Counted from the stretch's first letter, positions 12,348-48,062 are shown. The stretch is DNA of 64,000 bases from Thermodesulfobacteriota bacterium (GCA_965204035.1 OZ241964.1:1167933-1231932); one strand, 5' to 3'. The notes: generated by a model from the letters alone, not told the origin. Program-made: numbers and translations.

Positions 12348-12462
12348 ATCGGCTGATATTGCGGTACAATCCCCGGAGTGTTAGAGTGGAAAAGAAAAAT
12401 AAACTAATACAAATTTCATGTTATCTTTATATGTTAGGCAAATTAAAAATCAAGGAATCTTA

Positions 12463-13221
12463 ATGCACACAAAAACCCGCGCAAGCACCGTGAAAACCTA
12501 CCTGTTTTTCCTCTTTATTTCCTTATTCGCAGTCTCGGGATGTGGCCTGGATGTCGAGTTCGGAGGCAGTGGGAATGGAGACGACGGTGAAGGATCCGAG
12601 AACATAGAAGGATTTATCATAGATGTAATTCCGCAGAGAGATAACGGGGTTTCAGATCTTGTCATAAGGATTGTGAATAAAGAAACCACCCAGAACTACC
12701 AATTGCTGAAAGACTGCAGGATGGGAGCGAGCAACTCAGAAGTGGAAAATCAAGAACAGACAACAGGAACCAATGGAGCCTTTTGCGTAGAGGGGGATTT
12801 TGACCCCGAAGCCGAGCTCAGAATTTCTGAAAGTGGGAACGAAGACTCACCGCTTGCGGTAACAAAGCTCACCGTCTTTCCCGGAGCAATGATTGACATT
12901 GGAGACATTCGCATTAGGGGTGGAAACATAGAATACACGGAAGATATCAACATAGATTTCAATATGGATTTCAGAGGACGTGTATCAACTGCAAACTGTC
13001 GTGATAATACTGGAAACATAGAAGTGGAAATTGATAGCAACAAAACGACTGATAATAATCCAATAGAAGTACTTGTTCAGATAAAATCAGATACCGAGAT
13101 TGAAACAGCAAATTTTGAAAATCTTGGTTGCGACTCCATAACCGTGGGGGACACAGTCAGGAGATTAGAAGGAACCCTGGACGGTATCACTATCAAGGCA
13201 AATTTCATCGAAATAGAATAA
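12463..13221 (+). CDS. AT-rich hypothetical lipoprotein (acidic, Asp/Asn/Glu-rich)
   Basis: Signal peptide plus lipobox (FAVSGC). Low GC relative to neighbours. Internal GNIE repeats. No family recognised. An ORF extension from 12418 is possible. Confidence 0.5.
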   Translation: MHTKTRASTVKTYLFFLFISLFAVSGCGLDVEFGGSGNGDDGEGSENIEGFIIDVIPQRDNGVSDLVIRIVNKETTQNYQLLKDCRMGASNSEVENQEQTTGTNGAFCVEGDFDPEAELRISESGNEDSPLAVTKLTVFPGAMIDIGDIRIRGGNIEYTEDINIDFNMDFRGRVSTANCRDNTGNIEVEIDSNKTTDNNPIEVLVQIKSDTEIETANFENLGCDSITVGDTVRRLEGTLDGITIKANFIEIE

Positions 13222-18919: not shown

Positions 18920-18993
18920 GTCCCCGTAGCTCAGTTGGATAGAGCGCAGGATTCCTAATCCTGAGGCCGCAGGTTCGAATCCTGCCGGGGACG
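18920..18993 (+). tRNA. tRNA-Arg (anticodon CCT)
   Basis: Hand-folded cloverleaf: acceptor GTCCCCG/CGGGGAC, D-arm GCTC-AGTTGGATA-GAGC, anticodon stem CAGGA/TCCTG with loop TTCCTAA, T-arm GCAGG-TTCGAAT-CCTGC, discriminator G. CCA is not encoded. Confidence 0.9.
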
Positions 18994-22791: not shown

Positions 22792-25758
22792 TTACAAGCG
22801 GCCGGTCTTTCTGGTCACCCCGTCTTTAACCCTGCAAAGATCCCTGTAATCGCAATAGGAACAGGGATGGTTCTTTGACATGTAGAGAGCATGTTCCTCC
22901 TGGTCAAGCTCCTTTTTCCCCACGTAGGGAGGGAAAAAACCATTTTTTATGCACTTTATGTAGTGGTGGCTGAGTAAAACCGCCTCGTCAAAAGAAGAGT
23001 CCTTGGGCAAAGAGCTGTTGTCAGCAGGCCTGCTGATTGAAAGATAACGGCCCCAGGAGGGGACAAAGCCCTCCTCGCACAGCGCTCTCAGGTAAAGCGG
23101 GAGTTGCAGATTTTCAAAATCAAAATATTTTCTGTCCCGCACCCTTCCGATCTTGTAGTCAATAACCGCGACGTTCCGCTTGTGAACGTCGACCCTGTCC
23201 ACTTTCCCTCTTATTACCGCGTCGGCTATGCGGAACTCCACTTCCTTTTCAAAAAACCGGGGAGCGTGCTCATCTTTTTCGATCCTTAAAACCTCGTCCA
23301 TTATAAAATTCGGCAGGATGCGCTCAAAGAATCTCTTCTTCTCAATTTCCGCAACGTTTTTTGGAAGATGGGAGAAAACGCCGGGCTTGGCTTCATGTTT
23401 CTTTTTTATGTCCTCATAAGCCTCAAGAAACCGGTCGGCCTCAACAGAACCGGAGCCCTCGGCGAAAACAGTTTCCATCAGCTCTTTCAGCATATTGTGA
23501 GCGAGCGAACCCAGGTCAAGCTGGGAAGCCCTCTGCTCATCGATATCTCCAGGCGCCTTGAGCCCGAGCACTCTCCTGGAAAAATACCTGAATGGGCACG
23601 TCCCATACTCCTCAAGCTCGGTGGGCGAGAAGGAATCCCGTTTTGGAGGGCTGCCGAGCAGAACACCTTCAAAACCCGTATAGGCCCCCGTGAGCTCCAG
23701 TCTCCGCCTCTCCGCGGAAATACCGCCGGAGAGATGAGCGACTATATCGGAACCATAGTGCCGCTTGAGGACCTCTTCAATCTTCGGGTCTCCATAACCC
23801 GCACCAGAGGGTGAGAAGCAGTGAAACAGGGCGTCTTCCCTTGAAAATGCCTCAGAGCCCGGAGTCGCAGGAGAAACCTCCATCCCCTCAAGGAAATCGG
23901 AGCGGGCTATCTCCTTTGATCTCTCGTCGTAGCGGAAGCGGGAGAGAAACACCTTCTCGGAAGCCGAAACGCCGAGAGTGAAAAAGATATGCTTTTCCTT
24001 CTCGTAATGGAGACCTTCCTCGTCAAACACCCTTTTTCCAAGCGCTCTGTTTATCTCCGCCTTCTCCCTGGGTTTCAGCACGGGGTCTGCCGGGGGAAGA
24101 GACGGGAAAGAAGCATCCGAAAGCCCCAGGAGGAAAACAAACCCGGGGTTTATGCCGCGCGCCGCGGAAAAATCAATAACGCTTACCCTTTCCGAATCGG
24201 CGTCGCAGGGAGTTTTATATGGAACTGTCCTCTCGCCCATAAACTCATCCAGGAGGAAAAGATATTCTCCGGAGTCAGAAACCCGGAAATCAAACTCGCC
24301 GTAAGAAAAGGAAAGCTCTCTCAGGAAAGAGAAAAACTCATCGAAACACTCCCTGGTAGTTTTATTCTCCTCTATAAGCACCGCGGAACTCTCGGAAACC
24401 CTGAGTTCCGAGAAGATCTTTCTGAGATCAGAGGTCATCGCGGCAAAACTCCTTCTGCCGAACTTCGACGATAAAGAATCAAGCACGAAGGCTATATTGC
24501 GGGCAGCCGAGGACATCCGGCCGTCCTGCTCCACTATATGCTCCAAGATCCTCTTCCAGCCCGTAATGCCGCTTACGGTCCTGTATTTGAGGTCCGCGGA
24601 GGAGAGCCCCTTTATCATGTTAACGCAACGGTGCGAGGATTCAGACTCTCCCAGGTAGAGGGCAAAAAACGGGTTGTGAAGAAGTCCCATCAGATCGTTT
24701 CTGTGAAAATTGCCTGACTTAAGGCGCAGAATATCACCCGCAAGGCGTCCGTATGCGCTTCCCGCCAAGGTCCCGGAATTCCCGAGATCGACCGCAACCC
24801 CGTTTTTCTCGAATATACGTACTATGGATCGGCCGCGCCTCTGCGCTGACTTCACGAGAACCTTAAAATCAGAGGCCTTGTGCTCCCCATCCAATATGAG
24901 CTTCTTGATCGTCCTTGAGACATATTCAATTTCGTCGTGAGAGTCGCGAAACTCGCTGAGCTCCCTTTTTGTCTCGCCTCCTGGAATTTCCTTTGTCATC
25001 GTAAAATCTTCTTCATAGGCCAGAGAAGCTTCGCTTAGCTTGTCTAGAAAGCTGTCTTTGTATTCGTCCAGGTCGCCGAAATCGCTTAGGAAGAAGAAGG
25101 TTTCTGAAACCACCGAGGAGAGGCTCTTTATCACGTCAAGTTCGCAGAGGGTAAAATCGGAGAAACCGAAAACCACAAGTCTCTTTGCAGACGGGAAGAA
25201 CGGAGTAAGTCCTTCTCCGTCCAGTTCTTCTGAAACGACACGGACAGAATCCGCGTCGTCAAGAAAGCCTCTTTCCGCTACGAGCGCTTCGTATCTTTTG
25301 TAAACAAGCCCTATATCCGAGAGTTTTTTTCGAAGACCACGCGTTTTGATTCTCTTAGCGGAACCGGCAAGCTCCTCCACGGATACCTTGCTCTGCTTAA
25401 GTCTTGAAAGAATGGAAGCTGCGGAGTTAAGAAAGTCCCGGTTCTGGGAGAATTCCCCGAAAACCTCAAGGTCCCCCGATACCACCTCCGCCGCTTTTCT
25501 GGTTACGGATAAGACCTGGGTCCTTGATATCCTCTTCTTTTTCAGGTTCGGGGAGGCCTCGTTTACAAAATCGGAAAGTTCATAGAACGTGAGCAGGTTT
25601 TTTCCCCATACTCCTTCCCTAGAGTAATAATCCTCTATTTCCTGTACAACCGAGACGCCGGGGAGAAGGAAGAGGGTTGTCTCATCGCTCGGGTTAAGCC
25701 CGTATTCTTTGAAAAGATTTTTGAAAGTGAGTTCTTTGGGGTGATAAATGACTTTCAT
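22792..25758 (-). CDS. addB: ATP-dependent helicase/nuclease subunit B (AddB/RexB) with C-terminal Fe-S nuclease domain
   Basis: Adjacent and co-directional with addA. The C-terminal cysteine cluster (CPFRYF ... CSYCDYRDLC) and DYK motif are typical of the AddB nuclease/Fe-S domain. Confidence 0.85.
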   Translation of the reverse strand: MKVIYHPKELTFKNLFKEYGLNPSDETTLFLLPGVSVVQEIEDYYSREGVWGKNLLTFYELSDFVNEASPNLKKKRISRTQVLSVTRKAAEVVSGDLEVFGEFSQNRDFLNSAASILSRLKQSKVSVEELAGSAKRIKTRGLRKKLSDIGLVYKRYEALVAERGFLDDADSVRVVSEELDGEGLTPFFPSAKRLVVFGFSDFTLCELDVIKSLSSVVSETFFFLSDFGDLDEYKDSFLDKLSEASLAYEEDFTMTKEIPGGETKRELSEFRDSHDEIEYVSRTIKKLILDGEHKASDFKVLVKSAQRRGRSIVRIFEKNGVAVDLGNSGTLAGSAYGRLAGDILRLKSGNFHRNDLMGLLHNPFFALYLGESESSHRCVNMIKGLSSADLKYRTVSGITGWKRILEHIVEQDGRMSSAARNIAFVLDSLSSKFGRRSFAAMTSDLRKIFSELRVSESSAVLIEENKTTRECFDEFFSFLRELSFSYGEFDFRVSDSGEYLFLLDEFMGERTVPYKTPCDADSERVSVIDFSAARGINPGFVFLLGLSDASFPSLPPADPVLKPREKAEINRALGKRVFDEEGLHYEKEKHIFFTLGVSASEKVFLSRFRYDERSKEIARSDFLEGMEVSPATPGSEAFSREDALFHCFSPSGAGYGDPKIEEVLKRHYGSDIVAHLSGGISAERRRLELTGAYTGFEGVLLGSPPKRDSFSPTELEEYGTCPFRYFSRRVLGLKAPGDIDEQRASQLDLGSLAHNMLKELMETVFAEGSGSVEADRFLEAYEDIKKKHEAKPGVFSHLPKNVAEIEKKRFFERILPNFIMDEVLRIEKDEHAPRFFEKEVEFRIADAVIRGKVDRVDVHKRNVAVIDYKIGRVRDRKYFDFENLQLPLYLRALCEEGFVPSWGRYLSISRPADNSSLPKDSSFDEAVLLSHHYIKCIKNGFFPPYVGKKELDQEEHALYMSKNHPCSYCDYRDLCRVKDGVTRKTGRL

Positions 25759-25812
25759 CTAGCAGAGAAACGCTGGAATCCTAAGGAAGACCGCTTTTGC
25801 GGTTGAAAACCC

Positions 25813-26016
25813 TCAAGTAGCAGAACCTGTCGAGTAAATTATATCTGAACTGTGAGAAGATTGATTAAGTTTTAAATATTCTTTCATCAATTGAATAAAT
25901 TGGAAGGCCAGAACGCGCCTCGCCGCCCATTCGGTCGTTTCCTCGTAGATTCCTTGTTCTTTAAGGAAGTCCTCAAATAGTGTGCCGACTTTTCCCCTCT
26001 TAATATTTGCAGTCAT
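25813..26016 (-). pseudogene. Truncated XRE-family HTH antitoxin remnant (HigA/RelE-partner type)
   Basis: The N-terminus (GKVGTLFEDFLKEQGIYEETTEWAARRVLAFQFIQLM) matches the conserved N-terminal region of XRE antitoxins. The HTH region is replaced by unrelated residues and the ORF ends after 67 aa. Confidence 0.4.
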
Positions 26017-26031
26017 TGAAGCATCCTGAAT

Positions 26032-26412
26032 TCAGGAAATTTGCTGAGCCAGAATTCTAAGCCAGTCAGCAAGTTCCCTTTCCTCAATAATGCCTTGGGC
26101 GGCTTTAATCATCATGTCACCAGCTTCCACAGTGTCAAAATCCAGTTCTATACCGTTTATAGTCAAGCAGGTATCCATGGCCTTAAATGCGGTTCTCTTG
26201 TTACCGTCATTAAACGCATGACCAACTGCAATACAACAGGCGTAACAAGCGGCGAGTTCAAATACATCTTCGACCATGTCGTAGGCAACACGGTTGTCAA
26301 CACGGGCTAAAACGGACTCAATGGACTTGTTCAGGGCCATGCCTTGCAGTTCGTCAGGTCCAAGAACCTGCTCATGCATGGCAATCACCTTCTCGGGTGA
26401 TAGATATTTCAT
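26032..26412 (-). CDS. doc: Doc (death-on-curing) toxin, Fic-fold kinase family
   Basis: The Fic/Doc motif GHAFNDGNKR is present. 126 aa. Lies immediately downstream of a small acidic ORF. Confidence 0.85.
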   Translation of the reverse strand: MKYLSPEKVIAMHEQVLGPDELQGMALNKSIESVLARVDNRVAYDMVEDVFELAACYACCIAVGHAFNDGNKRTAFKAMDTCLTINGIELDFDTVEAGDMMIKAAQGIIEERELADWLRILAQQIS

Positions 26413-26414
26413 GC

Positions 26415-26663
26415 TTATTTATCTTTGAGGTAATCCAGTATCGGCTGTATCTTGTCTTTGCGTTTTGCAATAGCCGCATCAACTTCGTCGGGATCAGCAA
26501 GTTCAAAGCGGGATTCATCCACGACGGAATTGGTGGTCGAAGAGTCCCTGGGTTCATCACTGTCCAAAACAGCTAGAGATTCGTCGCCAGCTTTTTTGGC
26601 AACTTTTTCAGGATTGCCGAGATCACTCAGCAATGCGGTTTTTTCAGTCAACTTGTCTCCCAT
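26415..26663 (-). CDS. Putative antitoxin of the Doc toxin (non-canonical, acidic/disordered; not obviously Phd/YefM)
   Basis: 82-aa ORF ending 3 nt before the doc start, which is the typical antitoxin-toxin arrangement. The sequence is low-complexity and acidic. Confidence 0.5.
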   Translation of the reverse strand: MGDKLTEKTALLSDLGNPEKVAKKAGDESLAVLDSDEPRDSSTTNSVVDESRFELADPDEVDAAIAKRKDKIQPILDYLKDK

Positions 26664-26883
26664 TACAACCTCACTGTCTTGTGACTACAAATATATGGAA
26701 CTTCACCCGAAATATCAACTGAGATATCCCTAGGTATGATGATTTGATATAGAAAGTAAATTGACAAGATTTTGAATAAATACCAGAAATTTAAGAAAGG
26801 CCGTTTTTCTGAACTCTATCTTTCCGCTCCCACAGGAACCCGTAACGAGAAGATTCTTCCGACCCCGTTCTGACAGGAAGGTC

Positions 26884-27108
26884 ATGTACTCCAAGCGAAT
26901 CATGGGAATTATCCTTGAGAATGTCGCCAAAGGTTTCACGGTTTATACCCATGAGCATAAAAGCTACTCGGGCTTGGAGAAAAAGGGATATGAGCACGGA
27001 ACCGTCCATCACTCCGCCGGTGAGTATGTAAAAGGCATGGCTCATACAAACGGCATCGAGTCCTTCTGGGCGTTATTAAAGATAGGCTATTATAGCGTAG
27101 TCCGTTAA
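26884..27108 (+). mobile_element. IS1595-family (ISXO2-like DDE) transposase, C-terminal fragment only (remnant)
   Basis: FTVYTHEHKSYSGLEKKGYEHGTVHHSAGEYVKGMAHTNGIESFWALLK matches the conserved DDE_Tnp_IS1595 C-terminal block. The N-terminal approximately 250 aa are absent, and no inverted repeats were identified. Confidence 0.75.
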
Positions 27109-27233
27109 GCACCTCCAGAGATACATAGACGAATTCTGTGGCAGGTATAATGTTCGTCAGATAGACACTATGGACCAGGTAGGTTCAACTATTCACGGGC
27201 TCATGGGAGCGAAGAAGCTTACCTACAAGGAGT

Positions 27234-30200
27234 TTGTCTCTGGATAGTCTCCATCCTGTATTCCAAATGAGAACAGCAATGATAGACACTGACAATGCAC
27301 TTAAACATCTTGCGGAAGCAAGAAAATACCACGAAAAAGAAATAGAAGTTCAGACCGAGTTGAAATATATGTTCAAGTCTCTCGGCATGGGTCCGGTACT
27401 TGCGAGGTCTGTAGGGAAACGTGAGGCGGACATTCACATAACGGACTATAACTGCGTTGTTGAAACCAAGGCCACAGGCAAAGCGAACCCGGAGGCAAGA
27501 GGGTCCCGAGGGGAAACCCAGAGAGCACAGCTTTGCTCATATGTTGATGGCTTGAGAGAAAACCTGAGGGGGGAGTTTGATTTTGAAGAAATAGCGGAAA
27601 AACCTTGGGTGGGAATTCTTACCGATGGGCAATCCGGATGGGTATGGAAATGGGAAAATGAGAGTGTGAGGCACCCCAAAGAACTAGGGAATCTCAGATG
27701 GAATGAGAGCGACATAGATACAAAGGTCTTAAAAAACACCCGCATAGCTCTTGGTGACACTCCTGTGGGCAAGCAGTGGGCTGACCCTGAAGAAATATAT
27801 GAAATATTCCGTAGAGACGAGCAGGAATTTTACTCCCTCTACGACGAACTTACAAAAGACCCTGGTCAGCAAATAAGAACGAAGTTCAAACTTTGGCTTG
27901 AGAGGTTGCGAGGGTCGGGCATGGCCCCCGAACATGAACTGCACCAGCACAACTTGTTTGTGAAGCACTGTTTTCTTGTGGCTGTGGCAAAGGCGGTTAT
28001 CGCAGCTCTTACGCCCAAAACATATGATGATGACCCTGAGATTGTACTGGGGGAAGGATTTACAGCGTGGTTGGTCGAAAGCGACGAGGGGATTGAGAAG
28101 AGCAAAGCTCTTTTTGAAAAGGCTCGGAATTACAATTGGCGTTTCCGATTCGGAGACGTGCTCAGAAATCTTTATGAGCAGTGCATTGATAAGTCTGACC
28201 GTAAAATATACGGTGAATACTACACGCCGGACTGGATTGCGGAGCAGATGGCGGAAGAGATTCTCGATGATGACTGGATAGAGTCCGCGGCGACTGCGGC
28301 GCTTAAGAGTCTTAAGGGCGATGGGAAAGCTTTAAACGGTATCGGCGTGCTTGACCCCGCTTGCGGGTCCGGGACTTTTCTCTACCATGCCGCCCGACGC
28401 ATCTCAGGAGCTAATATCCTGAGGACGGTGCCGCCCGGAAAACGCGCCTTGGCCGTGGCGAGGCTTGTGCATGGGATTGACATCCATCCAGTCGCAGTTG
28501 AGATGGCAAAAGCGACCCTGCTTAGAGCTCTCCCCCCCCCCCATTTCGGCGCGGAACTTCTCTACGCTTCTTAATATAACGCAGGGAGACAGCCTGCTTG
28601 CGACTGAGATTCAGGAAGGATTGTACAAGGAAGTTGTCGAACTTGTTTCCCCCAAGGGCAAGGAATTCAGGCTTCCTCGTAGGGTAATCAGAAATCCAGA
28701 ATTCAGGAACTTTTTACCTAAACTTGTAGAAGCCGCATGTGATCATTCTCCTGTTCCCGATGAGGTGCCTGAGGAGTTAAGAACTTCCCTTCAATCATTT
28801 CTAAAATCCCTTACAAAAATTATTGACGATGAGGGAGACAGCGTCTGGACGTGGTATATCCTGAATACTCTTGGCCCTTCTTCTCTTGCTGAAAAGAAAG
28901 TGAACAGGATACTTGCCAATCCGCCGTGGGTTCGGGTGAGCAACATTCAAGTAGAAAGCAGGAAGAGAGAAGTTGAAAGTATGGCGAGGAAGCTTGAATT
29001 ATGGGTTGGAGGAAAGAATGCGACAGGATTTGATATTGCTGCATTGTTTATACATCGGTGCGGAAACCTGTATCTGGGCGAGCGAATAAGCAGAGCGGCG
29101 TGGATAACAAACAATGCTGCTATTAAAGGCGGAAACTGGGAGGGGTTTCACAAGCGACATGGAAAATTCCTTACGCAGATAATTGACTATGGTGAGTTAA
29201 AGGAACAGCCTTTTCACGGTGCGAAGTCATGTGCGTTGATAGAGGATAAGCCCCCAACGCCGAAAACAGAGTTGTCCCGATTGGTAAATGCGGAAGGAAA
29301 AATAAATCGTTACCAAAAATGGGCAGAAATCCGAGACGTTACTTATTTGGAACCGGCACCAGAACCAATTCCAAAAGGAGAATCAGAGTATTTTGGCAAG
29401 TTCAGGCAAGGTGCCACAATAGTTCCCTATTGCTTATTAGTAATTGAGGAAATGCATAAGGACAAAGGCGGACAGGTAATGATTAAGATGCAAAAATCCC
29501 GTCAGAATCCTTGGAGGAACATAAAACCTCAAAAAGGAACGGTTCCAGAAAAATGGATAACTTCATGTATTTTTCCAAACGATCTATTGCCCTTTGCACT
29601 TCGTCCTGAGACCACTCAAGCACTCATCCCTCTTGGAGAAAATGGACTCCTTGAAGAGAATCCTGATAAAGAGCCATACTGGTCTATGGCAGACAAAATA
29701 TATAAAGAAAATCGGGGAAAGGGCAAGATAACTCCTCACACTCTACTGAATCAAATTAATTTTAGTTCTAAGCTTGAGAAACAACTCCCAATTACAAGAG
29801 GGAGCCCGAGTTTATGGAGAATTGTATACAATAGTTCTGGACAGCATTTGAGAGCATCTAGGTGTGGTGGATTAAAGGCTGTAGTGCAACATGCGTTATA
29901 CTGGTGGGAGGCTGGAAGTGAAGAAGAGGCACAATACCTAGTAGGGCTTCTCAATGCACAATGCCTCCAAGACGCATACAGAGAATGTAGACAGACCGAC
30001 AGACACTTTACAACACATATATGGAACGGTGTCCCAATTCCATGCTACAACCCTGAAAACGACCACCACAGAGAACTTGCGGGTCTCTGTCTTGAGGCCG
30101 AGAATTTCGTTGGAGGGATTCTTGGGGAGTTAGATTTTAGTTGCAGGCAAGAAAAACTCTCAATGCAGATAAAAGACGCATTGAGACGGGTTGGAATCTC

Positions 30201-30252
30201 TGAACAAATTGACAAAGTTGTAAAAAAAATTCTGCCAGAACAAGCTAGGTAG
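27234..30252 (+). pseudogene. MmeI-like Type IIL/IIG restriction-modification enzyme (N-terminal PD-ExK nuclease, gamma-class N6-adenine methyltransferase, C-terminal target-recognition domain). Frameshifted at a poly-C tract into ORFs 27234..28574 and 28465..30252
   Basis: ORF1 carries a D-x9-E-x-K motif (DYNCVVETK), methyltransferase motif X (YGEYYTPDW) and motif I (LDPACGSGTFL). ORF2, in the +1 frame, carries motif IV (NPPW) and a long C-terminal region. The two frames meet at a homopolymeric C run (at least 11 C), and a 1-nt length change would fuse them into a protein of about 1,000 aa. Confidence 0.75.
28531..28542. repeat. Homopolymeric poly-C tract (at least 11 C) at the frameshift point of the RM gene: candidate slipped-strand phase-variation switch
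   Basis: Directly visible in the sequence (…gagctct CCCCCCCCCCC atttcgg…). ORF1 and ORF2 overlap exactly here. Confidence 0.9.
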
Positions 30253-30297
30253 AATAATCCTTCCACTTTCTTACCTCTGAGAACAAGGTGACCTGTA

Positions 30298-30534
30298 TTA
30301 TCCGAAAACTCGGTGGCGCTCAATGCCGGACAACAAGGCCACCAAGCAGATAATTCCCGACATGAGCGAGTATCCCAACGTTACTACCTCATGCGGAAGA
30401 AGTTTGCGGCTTGACGGATAGCATTCGATATCCGGGTCCCGAACAGCACGAACGATGGCCACACTCAGCATGGAGATTCGCCCCCTGAGCGGTTCCGATT
30501 TACGGTTCGTCTTGTCCAGACTGTTCATCGCCAC
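30298..30534 (-). CDS. Orphan small ORF (78 aa), no recognisable family; possibly non-coding
   Basis: The only ORF in a 290-nt gap between the RM gene and a secreted-protein gene. No motifs recognised. Confidence 0.2.
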   Translation of the reverse strand: MAMNSLDKTNRKSEPLRGRISMLSVAIVRAVRDPDIECYPSSRKLLPHEVVTLGYSLMSGIICLVALLSGIERHRVFG

Positions 30535-30545
30535 GCTACTTCAAA

Positions 30546-31019
30546 TTATTTAACTTCCGGAATCCTTTGAAGAATATGTATCTTCTTCGCCTTCATGATG
30601 TTCTTGCGCTTGGAAAGAAAATACCTTTTATGCTTGCTGTAGCGACCCCAGATCCTTACCCTGCTCCCGTTTTCAACGCCTTCCACGAACCCTCTTGCGT
30701 AAACGTTTATTCTTTTTTCCGGATCATTCTCAAAGAACTGAAACAGGGTGAACTTCCTTCCGTTCGCCATTCTCTTGAACCGCAGATCACCCACCTGCCC
30801 CTCGAGCGTGAATATTTTCCTATGAAACTCATCGCGGGAGGAGAGAACCTGCGAGATGGTTACGGCCGGCGGTTCAAGTTCTCCAATGTCGGTATAGGTC
30901 TTGTAGACCTCTTCTTTTCCGTAAGAAGAAACCGGAATCGCCAAAAAAAGCAGAAAAACTAAAAGAAAATTTCTCATTCTTCCAACCGCCGAAAATACCC
31001 TGTACCACCAAGCGGCCAT
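30546..31019 (-). CDS. Secreted OB-fold protein, YgiW/BOF (DUF388)-like
   Basis: Signal peptide MRNFLLVFLLFLAIPVSSYG. The body (VTISQVLSSRDEFHRKIFTLEGQVGD…RVRIWGRY) fits the BOF/YgiW periplasmic OB-fold pattern. Confidence 0.55.
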   Translation of the reverse strand: MAAWWYRVFSAVGRMRNFLLVFLLFLAIPVSSYGKEEVYKTYTDIGELEPPAVTISQVLSSRDEFHRKIFTLEGQVGDLRFKRMANGRKFTLFQFFENDPEKRINVYARGFVEGVENGSRVRIWGRYSKHKRYFLSKRKNIMKAKKIHILQRIPEVK

Positions 31020-31033
31020 CCGGGCCCATGACG

Positions 31034-32422
31034 CTATGAAACCGGCTTTGTCATCGACAGCGGGTCAAGGACCCTGTCAAGCTCCTCGTCTGAAAGCACT
31101 CCCTTTTTCCTAGCAACTTCCCTCACCGTGCTGCCCGAAGCGTAGGCTTCCTTCGCAATCGCGGCCGCGTTGTCATAACCTATGATCGGCGCGAGGCTGG
31201 TGCACATGGCGAGGCTCTGCTCGATGATCTCCCCGCAGCGCTCCTCGTCCGCCTCTATTGCGGAGATGCACTTGTCGACAAACACGGTGCAGACCCTGGA
31301 TAAAAGCCTTATCGACTGAAGGAGATTATCCGCCATCATCGGCATCATAACGTTAAGCTCGAAATTCCCCGACTGCCCTCCGATCGTTATCGCCGCGTCG
31401 TTGCCGATCACCTGGGCCGCGACCTGCGTAACCGACTCCCCGATCACGGGGTTAACCTTCCCCGGCATAATGGACGAACCCGGCTGTATCGCGGGCAGAA
31501 GGATCTCTCCGAAGCCGCAGCGCGGACCGCTTCCAAGCCAACGTATGTCGTTTGCTATCTTGATGAGGCTCACAGAGACCGTCTTGAGAGCTCCGCTTGT
31601 CTGGACGACCGCGTCCTTTGACGCCTGGGCCTCGAAGTGGTTCTTAGCCTCCCTGAACTTAACCCCGGTGGCTTCGCTTATCCTTGCCGCCACCTTCTTT
31701 CCGAAATCCTTGTGGGTGTTTATCCCCGTGCCGACAGCGGTGCCTCCTATTGCAAGCTCCGAGAGTTCGGTTCTTACCCCCTTTAATCTTGAGATTCCGT
31801 GATCGACCATACTCGCGTACCCGCTGAACTCCTGGCCGAGCCGTATCGGGGTGGCGTCCATAAGGTGGGTGCGCCCTATCTTCACTATGCGGTCAAACTC
31901 CTTTGCCTTTTTGGAGAGAGCGTCTCGAAGGTACTCAAGGGACGGTATGAGGTCTTTTTCTATCGCCTCAAGGGAAGAGACATGCATGGCCGTGGGAATC
32001 ACGTCATTGCTTGACTGGCCCATGTTCACGTGGTCGTTCGGATGCACCCGGGTCTTTCCCTTGAGCATCTCGGTCGCCCTGTTGGCTATCACTTCATTCG
32101 TGTTCATGTTGGTCGAGGTGCCGGAACCCGTCTGGAAGACATCCACCACGAAATGATCGTCGAGTTTTCCGTCGACAACTTCCCGCGCGGCCCGCGCTAT
32201 GGCCCGCGCCGCGCCTTTCTTCAGATATCCGAGTTCTAAGTTTGTATGCGCGGCGGCCAGCTTCACAAGACCCATCGCCCTTATGAATTCCCTTGGAAGA
32301 GTGCGTCCGCTCACGGGAAAATTCTCAACCGCTCTTGCCGTCTGCGCCCCGTAGTAAGCGTCCGAGGGAACTTTCATCTTTCCCATCGAGTCGGATTCCA
32401 CCCTGTATTTCGTCTTAGCCAT
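31034..32422 (-). CDS. Class II fumarate hydratase / aspartate ammonia-lyase family enzyme (AspA or FumC; not resolved)
   Basis: Signature GSSIMPGKVNP. N-terminus KYRVESDSMGKMKVPSDAYYGAQTARAVENF. 462 aa. Confidence 0.9.
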   Translation of the reverse strand: MAKTKYRVESDSMGKMKVPSDAYYGAQTARAVENFPVSGRTLPREFIRAMGLVKLAAAHTNLELGYLKKGAARAIARAAREVVDGKLDDHFVVDVFQTGSGTSTNMNTNEVIANRATEMLKGKTRVHPNDHVNMGQSSNDVIPTAMHVSSLEAIEKDLIPSLEYLRDALSKKAKEFDRIVKIGRTHLMDATPIRLGQEFSGYASMVDHGISRLKGVRTELSELAIGGTAVGTGINTHKDFGKKVAARISEATGVKFREAKNHFEAQASKDAVVQTSGALKTVSVSLIKIANDIRWLGSGPRCGFGEILLPAIQPGSSIMPGKVNPVIGESVTQVAAQVIGNDAAITIGGQSGNFELNVMMPMMADNLLQSIRLLSRVCTVFVDKCISAIEADEERCGEIIEQSLAMCTSLAPIIGYDNAAAIAKEAYASGSTVREVARKKGVLSDEELDRVLDPLSMTKPVS

Positions 32423-37131: not shown

Positions 37132-38553
37132 CTACGCATGTCTTCTCAGGAAAACAACAGAGAAGAAAGCGGACGCTGTCAGAAGCAGGCTGAGCAAAGC
37201 GGCCTGAGACCTATTGCTGGCTCCGGCGATAGCGCATCCACCTCCACCACCTGACGTCGTTTCTTCTGGCGCCATTTCTGGTGGATTATAAATTCCGGAA
37301 CCGAAGATTAATAGCTCGACAGGAGAAGGAACCTGAGACTCTGTTAAAGGAGTAACGGCAGCAACTGCTTTGGGAACTCCTCCGTTTATGTCGGCAACCT
37401 CGATATAGCTTCTTTTAGGCGTTGTGCCGGGAACCTTTCCATCTTCGAAAAAGTTCGGGACGTCATCGTCTGGATCTGTAGGGTCGTCCCAGTGGTACTC
37501 GACATAGGCGGAATTTTCGTCTCCCAATGCGTTGTTAAACAGCCTCGCTATATTCTGCTCACCCGACAATAGATCATCTTCCAATTCGAGGTTGGCGCCG
37601 TTCAAATCAAAGTTGTTTCCGTTCACAAGTACTGTGGATTCTGTTAGATCTGTACCCATTATAAAAATATATATGTTTTCATGCTTGAAATCTCCACTTC
37701 CAAAACAGAAAAGCCGCTCTTGAATTCTTGCGGTTACTGTTCTATAAAGTTCTGCTTGTGTTGTCGGGTCTACCAGCGGAGCTAGGGTTAAGGGGTTCTG
37801 TAGATCAACGCCGTCCAGTTTGCCGATTTCTTCCACTGTTAGTCTTCCTACATCTTCTTGAATTGTTTCTATAACATCTTTTACGAAAGCTTCAAGATTG
37901 GCGTTGCTCGGGTCCTCGAAAACATTTTCAGCGGTGGTTTCAAGCGTGAGACCTGAACAGTCAGGTTCCCTGAAAACGGCGTCAAGGTTATCCAAGTCTT
38001 CCTCGTGATGAAGACCCGCTATGATAGTTAGATTTTCACCAAGGCCGCTCTCTACTTTTTCTGCACAGACTACCCTTTCATTGTTCTCGCCGTAATCTTC
38101 GCAATTCGTAGCTCCAGTAGCTGAATTCTCGAGTAAAGCCTTAAAGATCTCCGCAAGCGGTGTCCCGGCATCTGGATTAATCTTGTAATTTATCAATTCG
38201 GGGTATCTCGCGTGATTTGTTATAACAAGATTATCGGTTATCTCCATTGCGTAGATTTCACCGTGCCTGTAGTCTCCATCTTCTCGCCTGATCTCTCTGG
38301 AGAATATTGTCAGTTGTTTGTATAGCTCGACGCGTCTTTCCTCAAAGTCATCACCAATGAACGGGTCCCTAATTTGATTGTAGTGAGCCACTATATGCTT
38401 AATCAACTCTTTCATGTGCTGTTCATTTCCAGGTTCGACATCAGCTGCGGTTCTGCTCTGACCGTCATCGTGGCTAGCAGATGCCTCGATAGTGAATGAA
38501 AAAACAAGCCCTAATACAAAAAACAGAATCATTCCGTATGTTCTGAATTTCAT
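37132..38553 (-). CDS. AT-rich secreted Cache-domain (sCache_2-like) ligand-binding protein with a C-terminal Gly/Cys-rich sorting-signal-like tail
   Basis: Signal peptide (…TIEASA). Cache-like motif YVEYHWDDP…KRSYIEV. C-terminus SGGGGGCAIAGAS…LLSLLLTASAFFSVVFLRRHA (Gly run, Cys, TM helix, RR), reminiscent of GlyGly-CTERM/MYXO-CTERM-type sorting tags. No cytoplasmic signalling domain. Confidence 0.6.
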   Translation of the reverse strand: MKFRTYGMILFFVLGLVFSFTIEASASHDDGQSRTAADVEPGNEQHMKELIKHIVAHYNQIRDPFIGDDFEERRVELYKQLTIFSREIRREDGDYRHGEIYAMEITDNLVITNHARYPELINYKINPDAGTPLAEIFKALLENSATGATNCEDYGENNERVVCAEKVESGLGENLTIIAGLHHEEDLDNLDAVFREPDCSGLTLETTAENVFEDPSNANLEAFVKDVIETIQEDVGRLTVEEIGKLDGVDLQNPLTLAPLVDPTTQAELYRTVTARIQERLFCFGSGDFKHENIYIFIMGTDLTESTVLVNGNNFDLNGANLELEDDLLSGEQNIARLFNNALGDENSAYVEYHWDDPTDPDDDVPNFFEDGKVPGTTPKRSYIEVADINGGVPKAVAAVTPLTESQVPSPVELLIFGSGIYNPPEMAPEETTSGGGGGCAIAGASNRSQAALLSLLLTASAFFSVVFLRRHA

Positions 38554-38796: not shown

Positions 38797-39981
38797 TCAA
38801 GAACGGGGACGGTCGCGCAGCCCGCCGCCATAGTCGCCGTCCGGCTCGCGATAGATCGTGTGGACGTGATCCACGGGATTGCCGGCGTCGCTTCCCCCGC
38901 GCGAGTCATTCGCATACTCGACAATGACCGACGGTCCCTGAATGACATAGGAAACGTCGCTCCCGGCCGCGATCGGGCCGCTCCAGGCAAACCAGGTCTC
39001 GTCGAGCCCATCTGAAAACCGCTCCTTCCGCGCCCGCGCATGATGTGGCGGCATGAGGTCGAACCACTGTGAAGCCAGGGCGAGAAGCTTCTCCCTCTGC
39101 GCCCTGTTAAGCAGCCTGCAGGGAATGCCGACGGGCTCCGGGACGACACCGTCCCAACCGGGGCCGACCCGCAGGGCGCCGCGCCGGTCGGAGATCACGG
39201 CCAGGGCGCGCTGCTCCGCCGTCAGGCTCGCGGCCAGGTCGTGCGCGAGATCGGTCTCCGCGGCCAGCGGCCGCAGTTTCACGCCCGCCGCAGTGAAGGC
39301 TTGCGGATATGTGCCGATGAAGCTCGGCGACATGTACCAGGCATCGCCATCGAGCGTGATGTTGAAGGCGATATGATGCCCGTCCAGCTGCACCGCCCAT
39401 CGCGACGTCGACGAGGGCGGACCGAACACGGAGAACCGAAACGCTTCGATCCCGACCCCCGGATTGATCTTGCCGTCGATGGTGGCGCGCAGATCGTCCC
39501 CCAGCATGACATCCCGTACCTTGCCGTAACCCTTCTCGCTCAGCAGTGCCGCGAGAAGGTCCGAGAACGCGCGAATCCGGGCCTCGTCCAGATCGCCGAG
39601 GGCAATGCCGCCGACATCTCCGCGTACCGGGGCATTGGTCCACCTGGTTCTTTCCGCGCTCGTCAGGCCGTGGTGCGCAGACCGTCTCTGCGCCTCGCTC
39701 AGCAAACCCAGGAAGCGGTTCGCCGCTCGCGCCGCGGTCTCCGGCGAGCGGTCCGGCGGGGACGGCCGATACGTGCCCAGAACGGCGCCGGCGCGGGATT
39801 CGTAACCCGCAAAATCCATGGCGGCGTCCGCGGCCCGGACTCCGCCCGCCACGGCCGACGGCGGGAGCAACATGCAGAGAAAAAGCAATCCGAACGACAG
39901 TCTCATCGGGACATCCTGCGTATTCAAGAATAAAGGGACACTCATTCCGAGAACAAGGGGGACAGCAAAACGCTTTCCCAC
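38797..39981 (-). CDS. GC-rich (approximately 68%) secreted protein of unknown function (possible DUF3500-like); probable start near 39906
   Basis: A long ORF in a segment whose GC is far above the window average. Signal-like N-terminus (MRLSFGLLFLCMLLPPSAVAGG). Overlapping antisense ORFs are explained by the high GC. Confidence 0.55.
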   Translation of the reverse strand: MGKRFAVPLVLGMSVPLFLNTQDVPMRLSFGLLFLCMLLPPSAVAGGVRAADAAMDFAGYESRAGAVLGTYRPSPPDRSPETAARAANRFLGLLSEAQRRSAHHGLTSAERTRWTNAPVRGDVGGIALGDLDEARIRAFSDLLAALLSEKGYGKVRDVMLGDDLRATIDGKINPGVGIEAFRFSVFGPPSSTSRWAVQLDGHHIAFNITLDGDAWYMSPSFIGTYPQAFTAAGVKLRPLAAETDLAHDLAASLTAEQRALAVISDRRGALRVGPGWDGVVPEPVGIPCRLLNRAQREKLLALASQWFDLMPPHHARARKERFSDGLDETWFAWSGPIAAGSDVSYVIQGPSVIVEYANDSRGGSDAGNPVDHVHTIYREPDGDYGGGLRDRPRS

Positions 39982-40171
39982 AGGACAGACTTTAACACGC
40001 CTTAAATTTCCCTGTCAAATAACGAGCGAAAAGTCTGTTTTTTCCTGAGAATCACCCCTGTTTTTTTTCCTTTGCCAACCTGTTTTTCCATCTTCCCGGC
40101 CACAATTCTCTCCTTGTATTATTCCAGATTGGTATTAGCATATAGGCATAAAACCCCCAAAGGAGATTTAA

Positions 40172-45129: not shown

Positions 45130-45345
45130 ATGTTCGGACTTGGCACGGCTGAATTACTGATAATACTGTTTATCGCCCTCGTAGTTCTGGGGCCAAAGGA
45201 GCTTCCAAAAGTCGCAAGAACTCTTGGCAGGGGGATAAGAGAGCTCCAAAGAGCCAAGGATGATATAAAAAAGAACATAGAGTTCGAAGACGATACCGAC
45301 GAGAAAACCAAGTTCCAGGCACCCGAAAAGAACGAGAACGCCTGA
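45130..45345 (+). CDS. tatA: Twin-arginine translocase subunit TatA/E
   Basis: MFGLGTAELLIILFIALVVLGPKELP N-terminal TM helix plus amphipathic helix. 71 aa. Confidence 0.85.
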   Translation: MFGLGTAELLIILFIALVVLGPKELPKVARTLGRGIRELQRAKDDIKKNIEFEDDTDEKTKFQAPEKNENA

Positions 45346-45408
45346 CTTGTCAAAAGGACTTTCTCTGATAGTATTTTCCCTAATCGTTTTTTCCTTTGAG
45401 CCCTCTCT

Positions 45409-47016
45409 ATGCCCAAGATAACCATCGACGGAATTGAACTTGATGTGGACGACGGACTGAACGTCATCCAGGCCGCCGCGGTGGCCGGGATAGAGATTCC
45501 CCACTTCTGCTATCACCCTTCGCTGAGCGTGGTCGCCCAGTGCAGGCAGTGCCTCGTGGAAGTGGAAGGCGTTCCCAAGGTGCTCCCCGCGTGCAACACG
45601 ACCGTAAGAGAGGGCCTCGTGGTGAAGACTGACACCGAAAAAGCTTTTGAGGCAAGGAAGGCGGCCGTTGAGTTCACGCTGATAAACCACCCGCTTGACT
45701 GTCCCATATGCGACAAGGGCGGAGAATGCCCGCTCCAGATGACCACTTTCGATCACGGTCCCGGTTACAGCAGGGTCGGCGGTCCCGAGAACAAGAAGGT
45801 AAGGCAGAAAAGCTACCTGAGCGACCGCATAATGTACGACGCCAACAGGTGCATCATGTGCACTAGGTGCGTGCGTTTCACGGATGAGGTGACAAAGACC
45901 CACGAACTTGGAACCACGGGAAGAGGATTCCGGAAGAAAATCTCCGTTTTCCCCGGCAAAACGCTTGATAATGAACTTGCCGGAAACGTGATTGACATCT
46001 GCCCGGTCGGTGCCCTGCTCCCCAAAGACAACCTTCACGAAGAGAGGGTCTGGTACATGAAATTCACAGACTCCGTGTGTTCCCTCTGCAGCACCGGGTG
46101 CAACATTACCGTGGGCGTCGACCCGAGAAAGGGAGAGGTCTCCCGCATACGCCCGAGAATAAACGAGGAAGTTAACGGGCACTGGATATGCGACAGGGGA
46201 AGATTCGACTACAAGGAGGTACAGGAGTCGACCAGGCTTAAGGACCCCATAATGAAAAGCGGTGGGGACTACGAGATAGCCTCCTGGGAGAACGCGGTTA
46301 ACAGCGTCGGGGCCAGGCTCTCGGGAATAAAGTCGGGCGACGCGGACACCTGCGCTATCGCGGGATCGGCCAGGCTTACAAACGAGGAGATGTTTCTCGC
46401 AGTGAAGCTCTCGTCCACCCTTGGGGACTGCCCGGCAATCTGCGCCACGGGAACCGGGGAAACAGAGAAAAAATTCAACCTTGTAAGCAACGACCCTTAT
46501 CCAAACAGCGCCGGAGCCAGGAATTTCATGACACAGGCAAACGGAAACGATATAAAAGCCACGGTGGACTCGCTGCTTGCCGGCAGGATCAATACGCTGG
46601 TGGTTATCGAAGCCGACCTGTTCGAGATGGTTTCGGGCCACGAGAAATACGCACTTTCGCGGGCGCTTGAGAGAATCAGCTTCCTTGCGGTTATCGACTA
46701 CAGACTAACCGAGACCGCGAGATACGCTCACGTAATACTTCCGGCGGCAAGTCCCTATGAAAAGAACGGGACTTTCACGAACGACGCCGGACGGGTTCAG
46801 AGAATAAGAAAGGCCATCCCTCCTCCCGGGAATGCCAAGTCCGCATGCGAAATACTGTGCATGATCGGGGAGCGGCTCGACAAGGCCCTGTTCAGCTACG
46901 GCTCCGCGTCGGAAGTGATGGATGACATAAGCCTCAAGGTCCCCAGATACGGGGGGGTCAGCTACGACAGGATAGGTACCGTCGGAAAAGTTCTTGAACA
47001 CGGCGCGGGCGGATGA
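45409..47016 (+). CDS. nuoG: NADH-quinone oxidoreductase subunit G (short, 535-aa form: 2Fe-2S plus 4Fe-4S N-terminal domains, truncated molybdopterin-like domain)
   Basis: 2Fe-2S cysteines (CYHPSLSVVAQCRQC), HPLDCPICDKGGECPLQ, CIMCTRCVRF, DICPVGAL. Confidence 0.85.
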   Translation: MPKITIDGIELDVDDGLNVIQAAAVAGIEIPHFCYHPSLSVVAQCRQCLVEVEGVPKVLPACNTTVREGLVVKTDTEKAFEARKAAVEFTLINHPLDCPICDKGGECPLQMTTFDHGPGYSRVGGPENKKVRQKSYLSDRIMYDANRCIMCTRCVRFTDEVTKTHELGTTGRGFRKKISVFPGKTLDNELAGNVIDICPVGALLPKDNLHEERVWYMKFTDSVCSLCSTGCNITVGVDPRKGEVSRIRPRINEEVNGHWICDRGRFDYKEVQESTRLKDPIMKSGGDYEIASWENAVNSVGARLSGIKSGDADTCAIAGSARLTNEEMFLAVKLSSTLGDCPAICATGTGETEKKFNLVSNDPYPNSAGARNFMTQANGNDIKATVDSLLAGRINTLVVIEADLFEMVSGHEKYALSRALERISFLAVIDYRLTETARYAHVILPAASPYEKNGTFTNDAGRVQRIRKAIPPPGNAKSACEILCMIGERLDKALFSYGSASEVMDDISLKVPRYGGVSYDRIGTVGKVLEHGAGG

Positions 47017-48062
47017 CTCCACTTCTGATATCAATAGCGGTCGCAAAGATAGCGCTTGTCTTTTTCGTCGTCCTGACGGTTGTCGCCTACCTCACATTCG
47101 CGGAAAGAAGGTTAAGCGCCTTCATACAGGATCGCTACGGACCGAACAGGGTCGGGCCTTCCGGGTTTCTCCAGCCTCTTGCAGACGGCATAAAATTCAT
47201 TTTCAAAGAAGACATCATTCCCCCGAAGGCGAACAAGACCATGTATGTAATGGCCCCGGCGTTCGCGCTCGTCACGGCCCTTGCGGCCCTCGCCGTGATT
47301 CCCATAGGAAAGGGGGTTCACACGGATCTTTTCGGATTTCTCCAGGACCCCGTGTTCATAAGGTTCCAGATAGCCGACATAAACATCGGCCTTCTCTACG
47401 TGCTCGGAATAAGTTCGCTCAGCGTGTACGGCGTGGTGCTCGGCGGGTGGGGTTCCAACAGCAAGTACTCGCTTCTGGGAGGCCTTCGGGCCGCGGCGCA
47501 GATGATAAGCTACGAACTCGCTCTGGGCCTGTCCATACTGGGGGTAATCGCCATAACGGGCTCGCTTCGCCTGGGGGACATAATCGAAGCGCAGGAGAAG
47601 ATGTGGTTCTTAATCCCGTCCTTTATAGGGTTTGTGGTTTTCGTAGTTTCCGCGTTTGCCGAAACCAACAGGCTTCCGTTTGACATGCCGGAAGCCGAAC
47701 CCGAGATAGTCGCCGGCTATCACACCGAATACAGCAGCATAAAATTTGCAATGTTCTTCATGGCTGAATATACTCATATGATAGTTGCTTCGTGCATGAT
47801 AACTTGTTTGTTTTTGGGTGGTTGGTATCCCTTACCGTTCGGAGGGTGGTTCGGCATCGATATCAACACGCATTGGTATCTGCCGCCAGCTGTCTTTATT
47901 GGCAAAGTCCTTTTCTTACTCTTCCTGTTTATCTGGGTAAGATGGACTTTGCCAAGGTTCAGGTATGACCAGGTAATGGCCCTCGGCTGGAAGAGGCTTT
48001 TCCCCCTAGCAGTAGCTAATCTTCTCCTCGTAAGTTTTCTTATCATTCTTGGAATTCTTTAG
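47013..48062 (+). CDS. nuoH: NADH-quinone oxidoreductase subunit H
   Basis: Conserved NuoH/ND1 N-terminus (AERRLSAFIQDRYGPNRVGPSGFLQPLADGIKF…). Eight TM segments. The start overlaps the nuoG stop (ATGA). Confidence 0.95.
   Translation: MTPLLISIAVAKIALVFFVVLTVVAYLTFAERRLSAFIQDRYGPNRVGPSGFLQPLADGIKFIFKEDIIPPKANKTMYVMAPAFALVTALAALAVIPIGKGVHTDLFGFLQDPVFIRFQIADINIGLLYVLGISSLSVYGVVLGGWGSNSKYSLLGGLRAAAQMISYELALGLSILGVIAITGSLRLGDIIEAQEKMWFLIPSFIGFVVFVVSAFAETNRLPFDMPEAEPEIVAGYHTEYSSIKFAMFFMAEYTHMIVASCMITCLFLGGWYPLPFGGWFGIDINTHWYLPPAVFIGKVLFLLFLFIWVRWTLPRFRYDQVMALGWKRLFPLAVANLLLVSFLIILGIL

Follow-up and report, generated by a model that had tools for sequence, protein, structure and literature searches.

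Defence hotspots and islands flanked by core genes are known from the pan-genomes of E. coli and Pseudomonas, and phase-variable Type IIG enzymes with homopolymer tracts from Campylobacter, Haemophilus and Neisseria. Transporter insertion sequences of the IS1595 family, such as MTnSag1 and tISCpe8, were reportedly treated by Siguier et al. in 2009; this organisation, exemplified by the same two elements, is a known one in the family (PMC5704250, PMC3129680). In this report, we examine a stretch of 64,000 nucleotides (nt) of a Thermodesulfobacteriota genome (GCA_965204035.1, OZ241964.1:1167933-1231932), referred to as the window, and within it the interval between addB and aspA (25759-31033), which an earlier note, made from the sequence alone, had described as one acquired 5.3-kb islet of low GC content. 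We are fairly confident that the junction between aspA/bof and addB is a conserved variable hotspot in the chromosomes of Candidatus Dadabacteria, holding in this genome old residents and one recent arrival of IS1595 type, a decayed transporter insertion sequence with a single-chain restriction-modification (RM) gene. Each component is of a known kind (IS1595 transporter insertion sequence, Type IIG enzyme, Doc toxin, HigA remnant, core-flanked hotspot); the value of the locus lies in their specific combination.

The window belongs to a Candidatus Dadabacteria genome. It was compared with 28 loci from metagenome-assembled genomes of Candidatus Dadabacteria / Thermodesulfobacteriota, retrieved by an AddB scan and covering AddB identities of 57-96% (the sequences compared are cited by L numbers). 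Two genes bound the interval:

22792-25758, minus strand: addB (Pfam PDDEXK_1 and ADDB_N), whose start bounds the interval
31034-32422: aspA, a class-II fumarase/aspartase-family gene, whose stop bounds the interval (Lyase_1, 2.7e-105; NCBIfam aspartate ammonia-lyase subfamily above cut-off)

The order acrB-aspA-...-addB-addA is syntenic in nearly all 28 loci (tblastn with all window proteins). The distance from aspA to addB is 510 bp in L015, 612 bp in L027 and 8.6 kb in L022, and in L013, L024 and L025 it exceeds 10 kb or synteny is broken. The L027 site contains bof only and is effectively empty. The empty site evoked in the earlier note, with addB adjoining aspA/fumC, exists in near-empty form (L015 and L027). 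The cargo recorded at the hotspot in other relatives includes:

L013: Type ISP enzyme, PDC-M30A/B, CN-hydrolase protein
L022: Type ISP enzyme, insertion sequence with a DDE_Tnp_1_4 transposase
L016: PD-T7-4 and a SIR2/ThsA-like protein
L009: PDC-S11, IS256, non-specific endonuclease
L012: CN-hydrolase protein
Non-defence cargo: pyrroloquinoline quinone (PQQ) dehydrogenase in L003, substrate-binding protein in L028, and SulP

Across genomes the flanks are therefore fixed and the cargo is variable and enriched in defence genes, as in a core-flanked defence hotspot. Since both the length and the cargo of the aspA/bof-to-addB segment vary across the 28 loci, the repeated insertion and decay suggested for this spot are borne out; the window itself has three decayed layers: an XRE antitoxin and a transposase that are both truncated, and the two flanks left behind by a SulP gene. 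Hotspot content is at odds with the AddB tree. Indeed, the closest relative, L001 (96% AddB protein identity), has an orphan antitoxin and a HigB/HigA pair without Doc, and the toxin-antitoxin block of the window is nearest to that of L017 (88.8% nt identity, versus ~80% for addB). Moreover, addB identity to L001 falls to 91% over the first 300 nt. It is likely that hotspot content has been swapped between lineages by homologous recombination via the core flanks. A classical island associated with an integrase and a tRNA was considered and rejected: Pfam and NCBIfam scans found no integrase domain among the main open reading frames (ORFs) of the interval, the single tRNA gene of the window (tRNA-Arg at 18920) lies 6.8 kb away with none within 6 kb, and a direct and inverted repeat search of the interval found no repeats flanking it. 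The lack of an integrase or tRNA flank had been rightly pointed out. In L020 (4615-5136) and L021 (5156-5716), an extra gene for a lipoprotein-like protein of 173-186 amino acids (aa) lies between aspA and bof, so that the aspA-bof junction itself is not invariant.

The low GC content claimed for the interval is real: a GC profile gave 46.1%, versus 52.4% in the remaining window, and no other 5.3-kb stretch of the 64 kb has a lower GC content than 25759-31033 (sliding windows: mean 51.7%, standard deviation 1.9; 1.4% equally low). This composition, the presence of toxin-antitoxin, insertion-sequence and RM genes, and the near-empty sites of L015 and L027 all favour the view that a single defence and mobility islet, covering all 5.3 kb, was acquired horizontally by an unknown insertion mechanism. 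However, bof157 (45.6% GC), the toxin-antitoxin block (44.5%) and the recent insert (46.3%) are alike in composition, and the near-empty sites of relatives are also low in GC (for example L027, 44.3% versus 51.5%). Because a core gene, bof157, and a shared toxin-antitoxin block are as low as the insert, low GC is not a sign of recent acquisition. Moreover, bof157 is core in nearly all relatives, and a trio of antitoxin, Doc and XRE stub is common to many species, both at the same place and with the same low GC; for these parts relatives thus hold the same content with matching composition, which the earlier note itself had named as the mark of an ancestral region. Only 26904-30358 is genome-specific, and it has transposon ends of its own. 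A single acquisition is therefore very improbable. All the objects named in the earlier note exist as ORFs or sequences in the interval; as one islet they do not hold together, and the interval is best read as a stack of layers.

The genome-specific segment, which is absent from all 28 related loci, comprises the following features:

26904-30358, plus strand: decayed IS1595-family element of 3455 bp (left tip, truncated transposase, RM passenger, right tip)
26904-26916, plus strand: left inverted-repeat tip, GGGAATTATCCTT, matching at 13 of 13 positions the start of the left repeat of L036 and L037
26908-27247, plus strand: IS1595 transposase remnant, residues 182-296 of 297, with a frameshift near 27100
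30348-30358, plus strand: right inverted-repeat tip, AGATAATTCCC, matching at 10 of 11 positions

The insertion mechanism, left unclear in the earlier note, is thereby resolved for this recent part only, as that of a decayed IS1595-family transporter insertion sequence with inverted-repeat tips. The transposase fragment, readable at 26884-27247 in two reading frames, matches Pfam PF12762 DDE_Tnp_IS1595 (5.4e-14) and NCBIfam NF033547 (3e-14), in agreement with the family proposed for it, and shares 83-87% identity with the full-length transposase (297 aa) found in L029. The ends of the element were defined by comparing independent copies found with a transposase search; an inverted-repeat search of L029 alone did not show them. 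Its inverted repeats, 25 bp long, have the sequence GGGAATTATCC(Y)TTTWAGTTGACAA, and insertion duplicates 8 bp of the target. Two copies are delimited by target duplications:

L036, 3004-5544: element with the 8-bp target duplication TTTTATTT
L038, 4928-8534: element with perfect 25-bp inverted repeats and the target duplication AAACATTT

In both of them, passenger genes follow the transposase and precede the right repeat, and the window has the same arrangement, with a DDE_Tnp_IS1595 transposase and an RM passenger between it and the right tip. The two window tips sit where homology to relatives breaks, and homology to the L014 SulP leader resumes at 30364, ~6 bp past the right tip. The left tip is fused to transposase codon ~183 via the microhomology ATCCTT (L029 reads ATTGGATCATCCTTGAG at that transposase position), so that an internal deletion took 181 transposase codons along with the promoter and the inner part of the repeat.

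In four copies, an IS1595 transposase lies directly upstream of the RM gene, in ever shorter states: full length in L029 (297 aa), in fragments in L035 (residues 72-297), reduced to residues 182-296 in the window, and to a 54-aa stub in L030 (residues 244-297). Each RM-gene copy lies at a different chromosomal site, and the contexts of the homologues are Dadabacteria-like, the nuo genes of L031 being 87% identical to window 45337-48043 and the IS256 of L029 matching those of L003 and L009. L029 shows a left repeat, the full transposase and the RM gene; L035 shows the transposase, the RM gene, three small ORFs and a right repeat; in L034, the right repeat lies 52 bp past the RM stop codon. An insertion sequence might instead have landed beside a pre-existing RM gene in dispensable defence DNA, the gene being no passenger: homology between L029 and L031 starts only at the transposase stop codon, L031, L032 and L034 have no transposase, and L029 has no right repeat up to the contig end. 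This is improbable given the right repeats downstream of the RM gene in L034 and L035, the repeat tip similarly placed in the window, the target duplications of L036 and L038 that bracket transposase and passengers together, and the recurrence of the transposase-RM pair at four different chromosomal sites. We therefore treat the RM gene as a passenger of the element. A further conserved protein of 137-138 aa with a hydrophobic C-terminus follows the RM gene in L035 (4238-4651) and L030 (11290-11706), with 57% identity between the two. Neither the window nor L034 has this protein, which could be an accessory passenger.

The passenger gene and its homopolymer are located as follows:

27267-30252, plus strand: Type IIG single-chain RM gene, ~990 aa if the tract had 10 C; an alternative start at 27279 matches homologues
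28532-28542, plus strand: 11-C homopolymer, which leaves the gene out of frame; 10 or 13 C restores the frame

In its present state the gene reads as two ORFs, 27234-28574 and 28465-30252. Once the frame is restored by removing one C, the protein has full-length homologues of 977-1017 aa with 65-79% identity. PADLOC matched it to REase_MTase_IIG (2.4e-37), and Pfam N6_Mtase scores 25.2 bits against a cut-off of 20.4. DPACGSG is found at residue 359 and NPPW at 547, together with an N-terminal D..ETK near residue 62, a nuclease motif recognised by eye. These features support a Type IIG single-polypeptide enzyme as the predicted product. The gene had been presented as Type IIL and split at poly-C: the split and a Type IIG assignment are supported, but IIL is not established, the Pfam MmeI_Mtase score of 24.8 bits lying below the 27-bit cut-off; homologues carry precomputed PF20473 matches.

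As the tract lies between motifs I and IV, the out-of-frame state would abolish both methylation and restriction. L029 and L032/L033 (two assemblies) have an 11-C tract at this site too, the gene being in frame in the former and out of frame in the latter; L030 and L031 have ordinary proline codons there. This distribution is compatible with a contingency tract. The tract is kept across ~20% nucleotide divergence with all third codon positions C, and the ratio of nonsynonymous to synonymous divergence (dN/dS), taken against L029, amounts to 0.08 for the part preceding the C run and to 0.17 for the part following it. Such values on both sides speak against a long-dead pseudogene. The gene is otherwise under purifying selection and is switched off by tract length only, so that it most likely works as a slipped-strand phase-variable module of restriction and methylation.

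Several observations weigh against this reading of the insert and of its gene. The window element has no target-site duplication, and the sequences on either side of it, CGAATCAT and GACATGAG, represent the two ends of a SulP gene that has been deleted. Of its 25-bp repeats no more than 13 nt are left at one end and 10 nt at the other, where the inner 15 nt depart from the consensus (right end). With the target duplication missing and the repeats partial, transposition in situ is inferred rather than shown. No intact element copy able to supply transposase was seen in the 64-kb window. The element could also have come already inserted, within a hotspot allele exchanged by recombination; the whole segment of transposon and RM gene would then have been imported by homologous recombination via aspA/bof and addB. 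Consistent with such an import are the missing duplication, the toxin-antitoxin block that is nearer to L017 than addB divergence predicts, the differing content of L001 and the drop in addB identity to L001 at the start of the gene. Yet no donor allele was seen, with the element found at this site in none of the 28 loci, and the SulP flanks abut the tips exactly, as if insertion and deletion had occurred at this locus in some lineage. We regard import as rather unlikely, though the least unlikely of the alternatives; it bears on where transposition took place, not on whether it did.

As for the C tract, it is 11 nt long in all three genomes having it, so that the on/off difference comes from flanking sequence and no length variation was observed, and the window frameshift may be a homopolymer error in a long-read metagenome-assembled genome. 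A dying pseudogene or a sequencing error, with no phase switch, would also suit the truncated and frameshifted transposase next to it and the error-prone nature of 11-nt homopolymers in long-read assemblies. Against both stand the single lesion in 3 kb, the low dN/dS of both halves, the conservation of the tract, and the out-of-frame state at the same tract in L032 and L033, which were assembled separately (one by Logan, from a public read set); in addition, the methylase-HNH passenger of a related element starts with a perfect (AGCA)x32.5 repeat. We consider this explanation unlikely, and keep the phase-variable module as the preferred one. The repeat just mentioned, at 4021-4150 of L036, is where the gene for an N6/N4-methylase-HNH fusion of 450 aa begins (5' end). 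This gene is carried as a passenger by the intact element, and looks like a second, different repeat-switched methylase/nuclease in the same element lineage. In L037, an 88%-identical transposase lies upstream of a C5 methylase that belongs to a cluster of restriction genes.

The insert lies next to the older residents of the hotspot, of which the toxin-antitoxin pair is complete:

26032-26412, minus strand: Doc (Fic-fold) toxin, intact, 126 aa, motif HAFNDGNKR
26415-26663, minus strand: putative antitoxin, 82 aa, ending 2 nt before the doc start codon

The identification of Doc is confirmed by Pfam Fic (1.5e-10), by TIGR01550 DOC_P1 (73 bits versus a cut-off of 38.65) and by an end-to-end match to the P1 Doc structure 3k33 (E 5.9e-21, residues 1-121). 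At least 14 related loci have the toxin in the corresponding position, with 76-93% identity; on Doc, PADLOC gave weak candidate-family matches alone, hence it is not called a defence system. For the 82-aa partner, position and near-abutting gene ends support the antitoxin role that had been proposed, but no Phd/YefM family match does: it has no match in Pfam or NCBIfam, and a profile of 11 homologues matches nothing in PDB. Its position is kept across relatives, its N- and C-termini are invariant (alignment A2), and a promoter-like TTGATA-17-TATATT lies upstream of the gene at 26718-26690. Two alleles of this antitoxin exist, with common termini and wholly different residues ~27-50, one in the window, L017, L012 and L022 and the other in L008, L014, L020 and L021. 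In L001, L002, L004, L005 and L023, the antitoxin gene is present without any Doc gene. The trio formed with the XRE stub is found at the same place in L006, L007, L009, L010, L014, L017, L021 and others, representing at least six other species.

The third member of this trio is a remnant that reaches close to addB:

25813-26016, minus strand: XRE/HigA-type antitoxin remnant, 67 aa, with residues 1-46 homologous, the helix-turn-helix lost and a 21-aa tail in its place
25838-25843, minus strand: TATAAT, invariant, ~80 nt upstream of the addB start codon, within the tail of the XRE stub

A truncated XRE antitoxin had been recognised at this place, and rightly so: residues 1-46 are 67-74% identical (tblastn) to XRE proteins of 97-109 aa in L001, L003, L005, L020 and L022, which have HTH_26/HTH_3 at residues 40-92 and follow a Gp49/HigB-like toxin gene, whereas the 67-aa ORF diverges past residue 46 and has no helix-turn-helix match in Pfam. 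The same truncated form occurs in L006, L007, L009, L014, L017 and L021 (69-88% identity); being common to six species, the truncation is old. Synonymous divergence is 0.18-0.36 in the XRE stub and addB-upstream DNA, versus 0.6-1.5 in doc and 0.5-0.86 in addB. The TATAAT falls in the most conserved block of a 7-genome alignment (A4) and is a candidate -10 box of the addB promoter; a simple promoter scan did not report TATAAT at 25838-25843. Such a promoter element would explain the low synonymous divergence of the stub, and the remnant has probably been retained as upstream or promoter (or 5' untranslated region) DNA of addB. It counts against this role that the argument for it is one of conservation. 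In L001 (~9190-9560), codon 6 of the Gp49/HigB-like toxin gene is a stop (MADEK*), whereas the reading frame continues in L003, L005 and L020; the L001 gene may have another start codon or be a pseudogene.

Traces of another old resident flank the insert on both sides:

26731-26903, no strand assigned: SulP 3'-flank scar, matching by blastn the DNA just past the SulP stop codon (L014 8884-8955, L008 9781-9876); 26804-26903 matches
30359-30545, minus strand: bof-SulP leader scar, comprising the intergenic leader and at most 8 SulP codons; 30364-30545 matches
30298-30534, minus strand: 78-aa "orphan ORF", spanning the leader scar and the right end of the transposon; no family matches

In relatives, a SulP/STAS/cNMP transporter gene lies between bof and the toxin-antitoxin module (L014, L021) or between the module and addB (L008). 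By blastn, L014 6696-5969 aligns to window 30364-31100 (82%) and L003 to 30413-31099. No SulP coding remnant was detected in the window by tblastn with the L014 SulP protein, the non-coding flanks alone being detectable, and a reading of the C-terminus of the 78-aa ORF as an internal SulP segment was dropped on this ground. An Rfam scan of 25600-31200 at E<=1, aimed at a riboswitch in the conserved SulP leader, gave no match. The small orphan ORF reported earlier is thus not borne out as a gene: by its position it is a chimeric ORF, an artefact of the junction. The toxin-antitoxin cassette may be movable as a unit, given that it lies on opposite sides of SulP in L008 and L014. A segment of 38 bp at 26775-26812 is 97% identical to L023 9957-9994, directly upstream of the addB start, and similar to L021 too; it is a second, diverged copy of the addB-proximal sequence, located beyond the toxin-antitoxin cassette. 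A direct-repeat test of 25765-25802 versus 26775-26812 was weak (score 19; shuffles 13.7±2.1, maximum 24).

Next to aspA lies the protein for which a BOF/YgiW-like identity had been suggested:

30546-31019, minus strand: bof157, 157 aa, with a signal-peptide-like N-terminus (by eye) and a predicted OB fold

It stands beside aspA in 24 of the 28 loci with 75-91% identity. A search of its family returned 190 homologues, and among the 120 listed every source name is Candidatus Dadabacteria. Twelve family members gave no match to Pfam BOF even at E<=10, OB_YrrC alone appearing, below its cut-off, and a PDB profile search with bof157 gave no significant match. AlphaFold2 reached a mean confidence (pLDDT) of 79.6 with a 39-sequence alignment, versus 33.5 from the single sequence, and Foldseek matched the model to OB folds of AspRS/AsnRS/LysRS (anticodon domains) and to the Klebsiella lipoprotein 3f1z. 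The OB fold is thus supported, and bof157 is BOF-like in architecture, but no match supports its membership of the BOF/YgiW family, and it does not belong to the islet in which it had been placed. It is a lineage-specific, probably exported OB-fold core protein that is not part of any insert.

The events can be ordered in three layers. The first is the core, formed by aspA, the OB-fold gene bof157 and addBA. The second consists of old residents found across species: the SulP gene, of which two flanks are left, the intact antitoxin/Doc pair, and a HigB/HigA-type pair of which the first 46 XRE codons survive, probably kept as addB upstream or promoter DNA. The third is the IS1595-family transporter insertion sequence with its Type IIG passenger, which would have entered by DDE transposition into or beside the SulP gene. 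The SulP body would then have been lost through an element-mediated adjacent deletion or through recombination between two copies, as the missing target duplication suggests. Later, the element would have been immobilised by the internal deletion joining its left tip to transposase codon ~183 at ATCCTT, and by the frameshift.

This locus illustrates that a low-GC patch between core genes can stack events of very different ages, which comparative synteny separates and composition does not. An IS1595-type transporter insertion sequence would provide a concrete vehicle for the movement of single-chain RM genes within Candidatus Dadabacteria, and from the conserved poly-C tract one would expect restriction and methylation to be phase-variable in this uncultured lineage. 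As a tentative suggestion, to which we give less than even chances, Dadabacteria may harbour an IS1595 transporter lineage specialised in single-polypeptide methylase/restriction passengers with simple-repeat on/off switches, of which the poly-C tract here and in L029/L032 and the (AGCA)x32.5 repeat of L036 would be examples. If this were true, transposable and switchable immunity or epigenetic modules would seed chromosomal hotspots in uncultured sponge- and marine-associated bacteria; RM systems have been reported to be enriched in sponge symbionts generally (PMC8163846). The aspA/bof-addB junction also offers a handy site for surveying defence-gene turnover in Dadabacteria. Elsewhere in the window, a low-GC ORF of 310 aa (47.1% GC) lies downstream of nuoH at 48078-49010. 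At the same nuoH junction, L031 (1-6267) carries an RM homologue, two small ORFs, a ThiF-like gene and a solo sequence resembling the left repeat (6243-6267); this junction may be a second variable spot. Other outliers in composition are the low-GC genes at 12418-13221 (42.4%) and 37132-38553 (45.6%), and 39001-40000 at 65.9% GC.

Compared with described systems, the element resembles IS1595 transporter insertion sequences in its DDE_Tnp_IS1595 transposase and, through features seen in its relatives, in the ~25-bp inverted repeats, the 8-bp duplication and the passengers placed before the right repeat; the transposase of intact relatives also has an N-terminal zinc ribbon, as in the IS1595 family. 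It differs from MTnSag1 and tISCpe8 in carrying a Type IIG enzyme of ~1000 aa (in L036, a methylase-HNH fusion) and not a lincosamide-resistance gene, and in its host, uncultured Dadabacteria. Unlike intact IS1595 elements, the window copy retains repeat tips only, without a target duplication or a working transposase. Like those of the MmeI/Eco57I-type IIG group, the predicted RM enzyme is one polypeptide that combines a D..ExK region at the N-terminus, the N6-adenine methylase motifs I (DPACGSG) and IV (NPPW) and a further C-terminal region, the homopolymer setting the frame. It differs in that the MmeI model scores below cut-off and that the tract is 11 nt long in all three genomes having it. 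The toxin-antitoxin pair resembles P1 Phd/Doc in a toxin that matches Doc end to end, in the Fic motif HxFx(D/N)(A/G)NKR and in a small upstream gene ending 2 nt before the toxin, whereas its 82-aa partner has no Phd/YefM match and exists as two alleles differing in the central third, and the module is chromosomal and conserved across species. Finally, the hotspot is like those of E. coli and Pseudomonas in its fixed core flanks (aspA/bof and addBA), its species-specific cargo of defence, toxin-antitoxin and insertion-sequence genes, and the lack of an integrase or tRNA, but its variation was observed across the species of an uncultured phylum, not among strains, and its cargo extends to metabolic and transport genes.

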